From the IMG/VR virus record IMGVR_UViG_2623620503_000006: DNA of 6,254 bases. One strand, given 5' to 3'. The notes under the pieces are model-generated. The model searched no databases, had not been told where the DNA came from, and worked only from the letters and a program-made list of their open reading frames with translations. Of this stretch, positions 3,112 through 4,959 are shown in pieces. The translations under genes were made by a program, and so were the position numbers. Positions within the stretch are counted from its first letter, which is position 1. Each line of letters starts with the position of its first letter. The stretch comes from a virus. Taxonomy: Duplodnaviria; Heunggongvirae; Uroviricota; Caudoviricetes.

Positions 3112-4959
3112 TCAGACCACGCTGATGCCCAGCGCCTGTTTCTTAATCACCATAACCTGCACATCGCTGGCAAACGTATCCGGCGGAATATCTGCCGAAT
3201 GCCGTGTGGACGTAAGCGTGAACGTCAGGATCACGTTTCCCCGACCCGCTGGCATGTCAACAATACGGGAGAACACCTGTACCGCCTCGTTCGCCGCGCC
3301 ATCATAAATCACCGCACCGTTCATCAGTACTTTCAGATAACACATCGAATACGTTGTCCTGCCGCTGACAGTACGCTTACTTCCGCGAAACGTCAGCGGA
3401 AGCACCACTATCTGGCGATCAAAAGGATGGTCATCGGTCACGGTGACAGTACGGGTACCTGACGGCCAGTCCACACTGCTTTCACGCTGGCGCGGAAAAG
3501 CCGCGCTCGCCGCCTTTACAATGTCCCCGACGATTTTTTCCGCCCTCAGCGTACCGTTTATCGTACAGTTTTCAGCTATCGTCACATTACTGAGCGTCCC
3601 GGAGTTCGCATTCACACTGCCACTGATATCCGCATTTTTAGCGGTCAGCTTTCCGTCCGGTGTCAGGGAAAAGGCCGGAGGATTGCCGCCGCTGGTAATG
3701 GTGGGGGCCGTCAGGCGCTTCAGGAACACGTCGTTCATGAATATCTGGTTGCCCTGCGCCACAAACATCGGCGTTTCATTCCCGTTTGCCGGGTCAATAA
3801 ATGCGATACGATTGGCGGCAACCAGAAACTGGCTCAGTTTGCCTTCCTCCGTGTCCTCCATGCTGAGGCCAATACCCGCGACATAATGTTTGCCGTCTTT
3901 GGTCTGCTCAATTTTGACAGCCCACATGGCATTCCACTTATCGTTGGCGTCCTTCCACTCTTTCGAAAACTCCTCCAGTCTGCTGGCGTTATCCTCCGTC
4001 AGCTCGACTTTTTCCAGCAGCTCCTTGCCGAGATGGGATTCGGTTATCTTGCCTTTGAAAAAATCCAGGTAACCTTCCGCATCATCGCTCGCCCGACCGA
4101 CGGCCTCCACGAATGCCGATTTGCCAACGGTGTTCACACTGCGGATATAAAAGTAATAATCATGGCCCGGTTTGATATTGATACTGGCGGCTATCCAGTA
4201 CAGCGCCGTACCAAGATAACGCGCGCTGGTTTCAACCTGTCTGATATCCGCAATCTGCTTTTCCGAGAACCAGAACTCAAACTGTACCGTCGGGTCATAA
4301 ACGGCAAGATGCGGCGTGGCGGTTATCTGAAAATAGCCCGGCGTCAGCTCAATCCTCGACGGTGCTGCCGGTGCGGCAATCCGGAACGATACCGACGCCG
4401 GATCGCCCTGCTGCCCCCACGCATTTACCGCCCGGACTGTCAGCCTGTAGTTCCCCAGCGCCAGTTGCGTGAAGCGGTATGTGGTTTCCGTCGTCCGGGC
4501 CGTGCTGACCAGCCGCTCACTGCCGTCGTCCGCTGTTACGGTCAGACGGAGCAGGAAACTCACGCCCTTCACCACCTTCGGTGTGTCCCATCGCGCCAGC
4601 ACCTGATATTCCCCGCTGTCTGCAGTGACTTCTGCGGTCAGGTGCTGCACCGCTGGCGGCGTGACACCATTCACCGTGCCACTCTGTTCGCCGTCAAAGT
4701 GCGCCCCGTTATCCACGATGGCCTCTTTTTCCGGCACATGCTGCACGGCGGTGATCCGGTCATTCCCCATGCTGTTCATGATGGCAACCTGAAACGGCAG
4801 TGTTTCCCATTGCCCGGGAGTATATGAAGACTCTTTTGGCAGATAATAATGCTGATCAGCCCACTGAACTGTCGTCAGTGGTACCGGAATATTGAGAGAT
4901 ACAAGCCCTGTTGCTATCGCACCGGCTGCATTAGCTGCCTTCTGTGCGTCTGAAATCAT
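3112..4959 (-). CDS. J: chimeric ORF: terminase large subunit (gpA-like) N-terminal ~70 aa fused in frame to the C-terminal ~545 aa of tail tip/host specificity protein J
   Basis: From the ATG at 4959 (the track start at 4962 is a TTG) the product begins MISDAQ...[41 protein letters not shown]. This aligns by eye with the lambda gpA N-terminus (...TAVEWADANYYLPKESAYQEGRWETLPFQRAIMNAMGSDYI). After roughly residue 70 (about nt 4740-4756) similarity to gpA stops and the product continues into a J-like C-terminal region ending ...[17 protein letters not shown]. The start overlaps the 3' end of the upstream TerS gene by 29 nt, as the Nu1/A overlap does in lambda. It could equally be regarded as a deletion-generated pseudogene. 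Confidence 0.8.

Follow-up and report, generated by a model that had tools for sequence, protein, structure and literature searches.

A terminase–tail protein fusion in Escherichia coli MPEC4839 as the probable scar of a recent deletion in a lambdoid prophage

In Escherichia coli K-12, the prophage DLP12 carries borD, ybcV (DUF1398), ybcW, ylcI and nohD in this order, followed by aaaD, a 103-codon stub of a lambda-type A gene, and by tfaD. The annotation gives aaaD as a pseudogene and tfaD as a separate CDS; when translated from the start of aaaD, the two are actually one uninterrupted ORF of 247 codons, A(1-103)::Tfa, with a GTG start (DLP12 locus 7355-8098). The J protein of lambda builds the tail tip through its N-terminal hub domains, together with gpL, gpI and gpH. 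A recombinant J fragment comprising residues 713-1132 folds and binds LamB on its own (PMC11101478; PDB 8XCJ), and the N-terminus of TerL is the TerS-binding domain (PMC9026076). Phage-inducible chromosomal islands (PICIs) belonging to the cos type have a small genome of their own, a TerS-redirecting rpp gene and a reduced cosB with R3 only (PMC9026076). Here we analysed a locus in which a terminase gene and the J gene are joined in one reading frame. We put the probability at about 90% that the locus is the scar of one recent deletion in a lambdoid prophage of E. coli MPEC4839.

The analysed stretch of 6,254 bp, called the window hereafter, is the whole of contig JYHP01000106.1 in assembly GCA_000954045.1. 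The accession belongs to E. coli MPEC4839, a phylogroup A, ST10 strain from acute bovine mastitis (PMC4966475). The phage context of the window is taken from relatives, such as VG48B2, in which the corresponding copy adjoins potB; prophages of the parent type (see below) likewise adjoin potB in complete genomes of relatives, which suggests the chromosomal position in MPEC4839. All genes of the window lie on the minus strand. One contig end is formed by the right end of an IS3 element (6133..6254), whose terminal sequence ...TGGGTAGGATCA stops at 6133. The element is located about 465 bp upstream of cosN in the orientation of the late operon, and its counterpart in the intact prophage of strain ARS-C101 occupies locus positions ~18865-20122. 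The cos region (5501..5700) was identified by alignment with the annotated cos sites of phage 21 and lambda, from which the subsite positions were inferred. On this basis cosN lies at about 5667-5656 with an inferred 12-nt cohesive end, GGGCGGCAGCGG, and the R3-I1-R2-R1 array of cosB can be aligned to that of phage 21. Lambda and phage 21 both have GGGCGGCGACCT at the cohesive end, and four of the last five positions differ from it in the window although the flanking cosB is 21-like; the intact ARS-C101 prophage carries the same variant as the window.

Downstream of cos, an intact terminase small subunit gene of the Nu1/gp1 type (4931..5479, 182 aa) was identified by its Phage_Nu1 domain (Pfam, 2.6e-83), and its counterpart in relatives is annotated as terminase small subunit. 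It is followed by the chimeric ORF (3112..4959), by lom (2430..3050), which encodes an Ail/Lom outer membrane protein of 206 aa, and by stf (41..2365), both retained and both recognised from ORF and Pfam evidence. The stf gene encodes an intact side tail fibre of the Ur-lambda type; its product is the uninterrupted 774-aa form, unlike the frameshifted orf-401/orf-314 pair of laboratory lambda, and many K-12-derived lysogens in the database share this stf at 99.9% identity. The contig stops after the first 13 codons of tfa (1..41), which are the same as the start of lambda orf-194. The preliminary description had listed cos, TerS, the receptor-binding end of J, lom, stf and tfa as kept, which holds for all of them except tfa, of which only 41 nt lie within the window. 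Terminator-like GC-rich hairpins with T-runs directly follow J (3080-3095) and lom (2382-2403) on the minus strand, and terminator-like sites are commoner in the window than in shuffled sequence (10 vs 3.9). An Rfam scan of the window returned 0 matches.

The chimeric ORF encodes 615 aa from an ATG at 4959, with an alternative TTG one codon upstream at 4962, and its stop side lies at 3112. As in lambda, it begins inside the end of the Nu1 gene, and the two share 29 nt. Residues 1-69 (4753..4959; the same as ARS-C101 locus 21296-21502) align with residues 1-69 of phage 21 gp2, the TerL of that phage, at 88% identity (E=5e-33), and the N-terminal part also aligns with residues 15-69 of lambda gpA at 64% identity (E=6e-23). 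Residues 70-615 (3112..4752) align with lambda J 587-1132 at 99% identity, carry the Pfam domains Ig_J, Ig_J_second, Phage_Tail_Tip and Ig_GpJ_C with E-values of 1e-34 to 1e-73, and match the solved structures 8IYK and 8XCJ. The chimeric composition is real and lies well outside what chance would give. The public record calls the 615-aa ATG form as a gene, KJJ66544.1, under the name 'host specificity protein J', and is silent on the TerL origin of the first 69 residues.

Comparison with the intact proteins reveals which domains each half has lost. The Pfam scan of the chimera found no GpA_ATPase, GpA_nuclease, FNIII-A_GpJ or Phage-tail_3 domain, all of which are present in the intact proteins. 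GpA_ATPase (PF05876) covers about residues 46-293 of intact gpA, and the chimera keeps just residues 46-69 of it (~24 residues). GpA_nuclease (PF20454), at residues 322-602 of an intact relative, is missing together with the C-terminal portal-binding end, and the hub domains FNIII-A_GpJ (PF24801; lambda J 86-207) and Phage-tail_3 (PF13550; 330-498) are missing as well. According to the domain names of PMC11101478, the J part retains the end of the hub/linker, FNIII-1, FNIII-2, the helical shaft, the central straight fibre and the receptor-binding domain, and it contains all of the LamB-binding fragment 713-1132. The J half could plausibly fold if it is made. The TerL half keeps the predicted TerS-binding segment homologous to gpA/gp2. 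Judged by its sequence, the chimera would be neither a TerL nor a functional J.

The two sides of the fusion resemble different phages. From 4755 down to 1, the window is 99.8-99.9% identical to lambda 17260-22013. The sequence from 6254 to 4753 is non-lambda; its matches are prophages of E. coli, at 100% identity in ARS-C101 and VG35A2 and at 99.9% in EC11 and N61. These four complete genomes of bovine or farm E. coli served as intact comparators. All four hold the order IS3-cos-Nu1-A-W-B-C-D-E-FI-FII-Z-U-V-G-T-H-M-L-K-I-J-lom-stf with every ORF open; their prophages are identical or nearly so to the window on both sides of the junction and carry the same IS3 insertion, and unlike the window they have the full 17-kb morphogenesis block from A to J. 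Counted along the gene strand, positions 1-1502 of the window match ARS-C101 locus 20001-21502 in 1502/1502 nt, and positions 1500-4462 match locus 38540-41502 in 2961/2963 nt (99.93%). Both mismatches are synonymous, one lying in the chimera and the other in lom. The parent, as far as these alignments indicate, is a single mosaic lambdoid prophage that combines a 21-type cos/Nu1/A segment with a lambda-identical J-lom-stf-tfa arm, rather than lambda itself, which had initially been taken as the parent.

Intact prophages from the USA, Switzerland, China and Japan have the IS3 element at exactly this position, as do E. coli 1303 and the deleted alleles described below. We considered whether IS3 upstream of cos had already silenced the late operon and relaxed selection on it. 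This proposal was rejected, since the four IS3-bearing strains keep all morphogenesis ORFs open; evidently the insertion by itself does not lead to decay.

The three-way display of the window against the two parental sequences defines the junction at the level of single bases. In the intact ARS-C101 prophage, the A side reads ...AATGACCGGATC followed by CGCACCG, and the J side reads ...TATGCCATC followed by ACCGCCG. The window reads ...AATGACCGGATCACCGCCG across the junction. Only ATC (4755-4753), which is A codon 69 and also J codon 586, is common to both parental sequences, giving a microhomology of 3 nt. It lies within the interval 4700-4800, in which an alignment to an intact prophage had been proposed as a way to look for microhomology. 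In ARS-C101 the two match blocks are separated by 17,040 bp, and in the window they have 3 nt in common. This distance is divisible by three, and A and J share the same frame in the parent, so that the join is in frame; the predicted protein reads ...GNDRI and then TAVQH... at the junction. A mere 3-nt microhomology indicates illegitimate rather than homologous or site-specific recombination.

These data bear out most of what had been read from the ORF at first sight, namely that it overlaps Nu1, starts as TerL and continues as the C-terminal half of J, that codon ~70 of A was joined in frame to the middle of J (codon 69 to codon 587), that the TerL ATPase and nuclease are gone, and that one deletion took all head and tail genes, which in ARS-C101 occupy the block between the two matches. 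The first ~70 residues are indeed homologous to TerL, and the intact relatives do carry the morphogenesis genes in between.

The deleted block takes in 17 whole genes (W, B, C/Nu3, D, E, FI, FII, Z, U, V, G, T, H, M, L, K and I), TerL residues 70-638, with the nuclease and almost the entire ATPase domain, and J residues 1-586 with all hub domains. Still present are cos and TerS, the N-terminus of TerL, the J half with the receptor-binding domain, and lom and stf, followed by the first codons of tfa. The late-operon genes flanking the gap are colinear with those of the intact relatives, which fits a defective lambdoid prophage minus its morphogenesis module. We propose that a RecA-independent, microhomology-mediated deletion removed the segment from TerL codon 70 to J codon 586, and that replication slippage or end joining may have been the molecular mechanism. 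TerL codon 69 would then be read through into J codon 587 as one 615-aa ORF. The in-frame result would most simply be chance, with a prior of 1/3. The remnant would be a defective prophage that is unable to cut or package DNA or to build heads or tails. Late transcription, if it reaches the remnant, would yield the chimera, which has no assigned role, along with Nu1, Lom, Stf and Tfa.

Related prophages have undergone deletions of the same kind. In VG48B2, residue 200 of A is joined in frame to residue 372 of J (A200::J372) with a loss of 16,002 bp and a 2-nt (TA) microhomology. A second deletion of 841 bp in the same prophage fuses J at residue 1008 to lom near its 3' end, with 4 nt of microhomology (VG48B2 locus 15806-15890), so the VG48B2 prophage lineage has been hit at least twice. 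In XJ34/XJ6-3, Nu1 codon 140 is joined out of frame to the C-terminus of stf. The potB-adjacent prophage of GCA_002518955.1 carries one deletion from inside the left end of IS3 to W codon 23 and another from W to J that leaves a W::J ORF, each with a 4-nt microhomology (locus 7952-8103 and 9889-10508), and its lom is frameshifted and split; it is a further stage of the same decay. All these alleles share with the window the IS3-cos-Nu1 left side (largely deleted in GCA_002518955.1) and the J/stf/tfa right side, as well as the loss of a large part of the morphogenesis block through joins that have 2-4 nt of microhomology. Their breakpoints differ from that of the window, and the sister deletions are therefore separate events and not the window's allele. 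A left-breakpoint hotspot near cos/Nu1/A was considered and dismissed, because the DNA queries could retrieve only sequences that contain this region, and breaks in W, H or IS3 occur in other alleles.

A protein search with the chimera retrieved further one-off fusions, namely H::J365 (P0010) and two fusions of a lambda-type A, A(1-350)::J518 (P0076) and A(1-350)::J600 (P0077). The other late-gene::J chimeras found are also singletons, each with its own breakpoint. P0076 and P0077 resemble the window in that an in-frame fusion of the TerL N-terminus to the J C-terminus is followed by lom, stf and tfa, with Nu1 in front in the P0077 copy (locus L013). Their A stub differs in being lambda-type and about 350 residues long, including much of the ATPase domain, compared with the 69 residues of 21-type in the window; they also differ from the window in chromosomal site, in the receptor-binding domains of J and in where J is broken (518 and 600). 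Both loci (L012 8001-10910 and L013 8001-10646) adjoin ybhB-bioA, which flanks the lambda attachment site. Both also break gpA at about residue 350 (...KDWMKTKGD), and this common breakpoint could mean that one allele arose from the other or that the position is a hotspot. In the databases, lambda J fragments of 98-99% identity are also deposited under Streptococcus pneumoniae, Staphylococcus aureus, Mycobacterium tuberculosis, Listeria, Helicobacter pylori and Enterococcus faecium, and the record 'Campylobacter phage CJLB-4' is 99.8% lambda. Such off-host records are almost certainly lambda control-DNA contamination of assemblies.

Other origins of the junction were weighed against a single deletion. 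The junction is read from one short-read draft contig of 6.25 kb with both ends in repeats (IS3 and tfa), as might be expected if it were an assembly or library chimera that is absent from the cell. The shared 3 nt are far below any assembler k-mer, however, the nearer end of the contig is 1.5 kb away, the join keeps the orientation and gene order of the parent, and long-read complete genomes of relatives show analogous deletions, which makes an artefact the least probable of all the readings that we weighed. Recombination between two prophages, one with a 21-type terminase and one lambda-like, would instead mark a larger chromosomal rearrangement, and the different affinities of the two halves, the left one to phage 21 (88% identity at the protein level) and the right one to lambda (99.9% at the DNA level), would suit it. 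This reading is extremely unlikely, given that four complete genomes hold both halves (100%/99.93% vs the window) in one prophage, with the same orientation and 17 kb between them, and that the 3 nt shared at the join exclude homologous recombination between prophages.

A different question is whether the chimera, however it arose, has been domesticated and is expressed, as the preliminary description had considered when it suggested expression rather than decay. The TerL part could then bind the TerS of its own or of an incoming 21-type phage, consistent with the TerS-binding role of the TerL N-terminus (PMC9026076), and the J half could act as a LamB-binding trimer, consistent with the stability and LamB binding of the J fragment from residue 713 (PMC11101478), with phage interference or an envelope role as the outcome; with cos and Nu1 both intact in the window, the cos-TerS segment might also be mobilised by a helper. 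The ORF is open, the native A start and the Nu1 overlap are kept, and several independent junctions are in frame. We nevertheless regard such a role as very unlikely. The allele is a singleton: its protein was found on a single contig and forms a 90% cluster of its own among ~15 billion proteins, the other chimeras are singletons with other breakpoints, and only the retained right arm is conserved. The 38-nt sequence across the junction had no exact match among contigs that represent each species by one genome, and this absence is expected for a strain-specific allele. With just two synonymous differences from ARS-C101, the open frame reflects youth and not constraint, and the deletion is too recent to have left a signal of conservation. 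From its sequence, the chimera is predicted to have no signal sequence with which a J fragment made in the cytoplasm could reach LamB. A promoter scan of the window gave 5 sites vs 4 expected, with no signal above background; a count so close to expectation makes the scan uninformative on expression. Lambda-type heads package roughly 78-105% of the genome length, and packaging of the remnant as a monomer is unlikely at ~27 kb, a rough estimate from the layout of intact relatives that falls outside the packageable range.

The reading frame itself could also be thought to matter. In-frame joins in the late operon might be non-accidental, either retained to avoid premature termination or polarity on lom-stf-tfa, or preserved because the product acts as a TerS-titrating J-fibre decoy against related phages; we find this idea even less probable than a domesticated chimera. 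A bias toward in-frame joins was rejected, since the chimeras from the protein search are in frame by ascertainment, and among the junctions whose frame was unselected two of three are in frame (VG48B2 and DLP12 in, XJ34 out), slightly above chance but not significant. Collectively, the retention of the chimera for a function finds no support, and we judge the locus, from the sequence comparisons, to be a case of ordinary recent prophage decay. It offers a clean, datable example of a prophage just after the loss of its virion genes, with a parent that can be compared at single-base resolution, and it could be combined with the sister alleles in a population study of lambdoid prophage decay that covers the breakpoint spectrum, the microhomology length and the surviving end. 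Its importance beyond such an example is little.

The remnant was also compared with described elements of reduced gene content. Assignment to a PICI or a cos-type satellite was rejected, as the genes follow the order of the parent prophage, the 182-aa TerS is a Nu1 of the ordinary kind, and the alignment of cosB with phage 21 spans R3-I1-R2-R1. DLP12 is closer. Like the window, it combines bor, a DUF1398 gene, a Nu1 homologue and a TerL stub joined in frame to a tail-fibre end, and it has no head or tail genes. It differs in that codon 103 of A is joined to tfa, so that J, lom and stf are lost too; moreover, the stub derives from a lambda-type A, and DLP12 is an old prophage that is fixed in K-12, whereas the allele in the window is a recent singleton. 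The in-frame scar of a TerL stub and a tail gene is thus already known and annotated in reference E. coli, and the window is a younger case with another right breakpoint.
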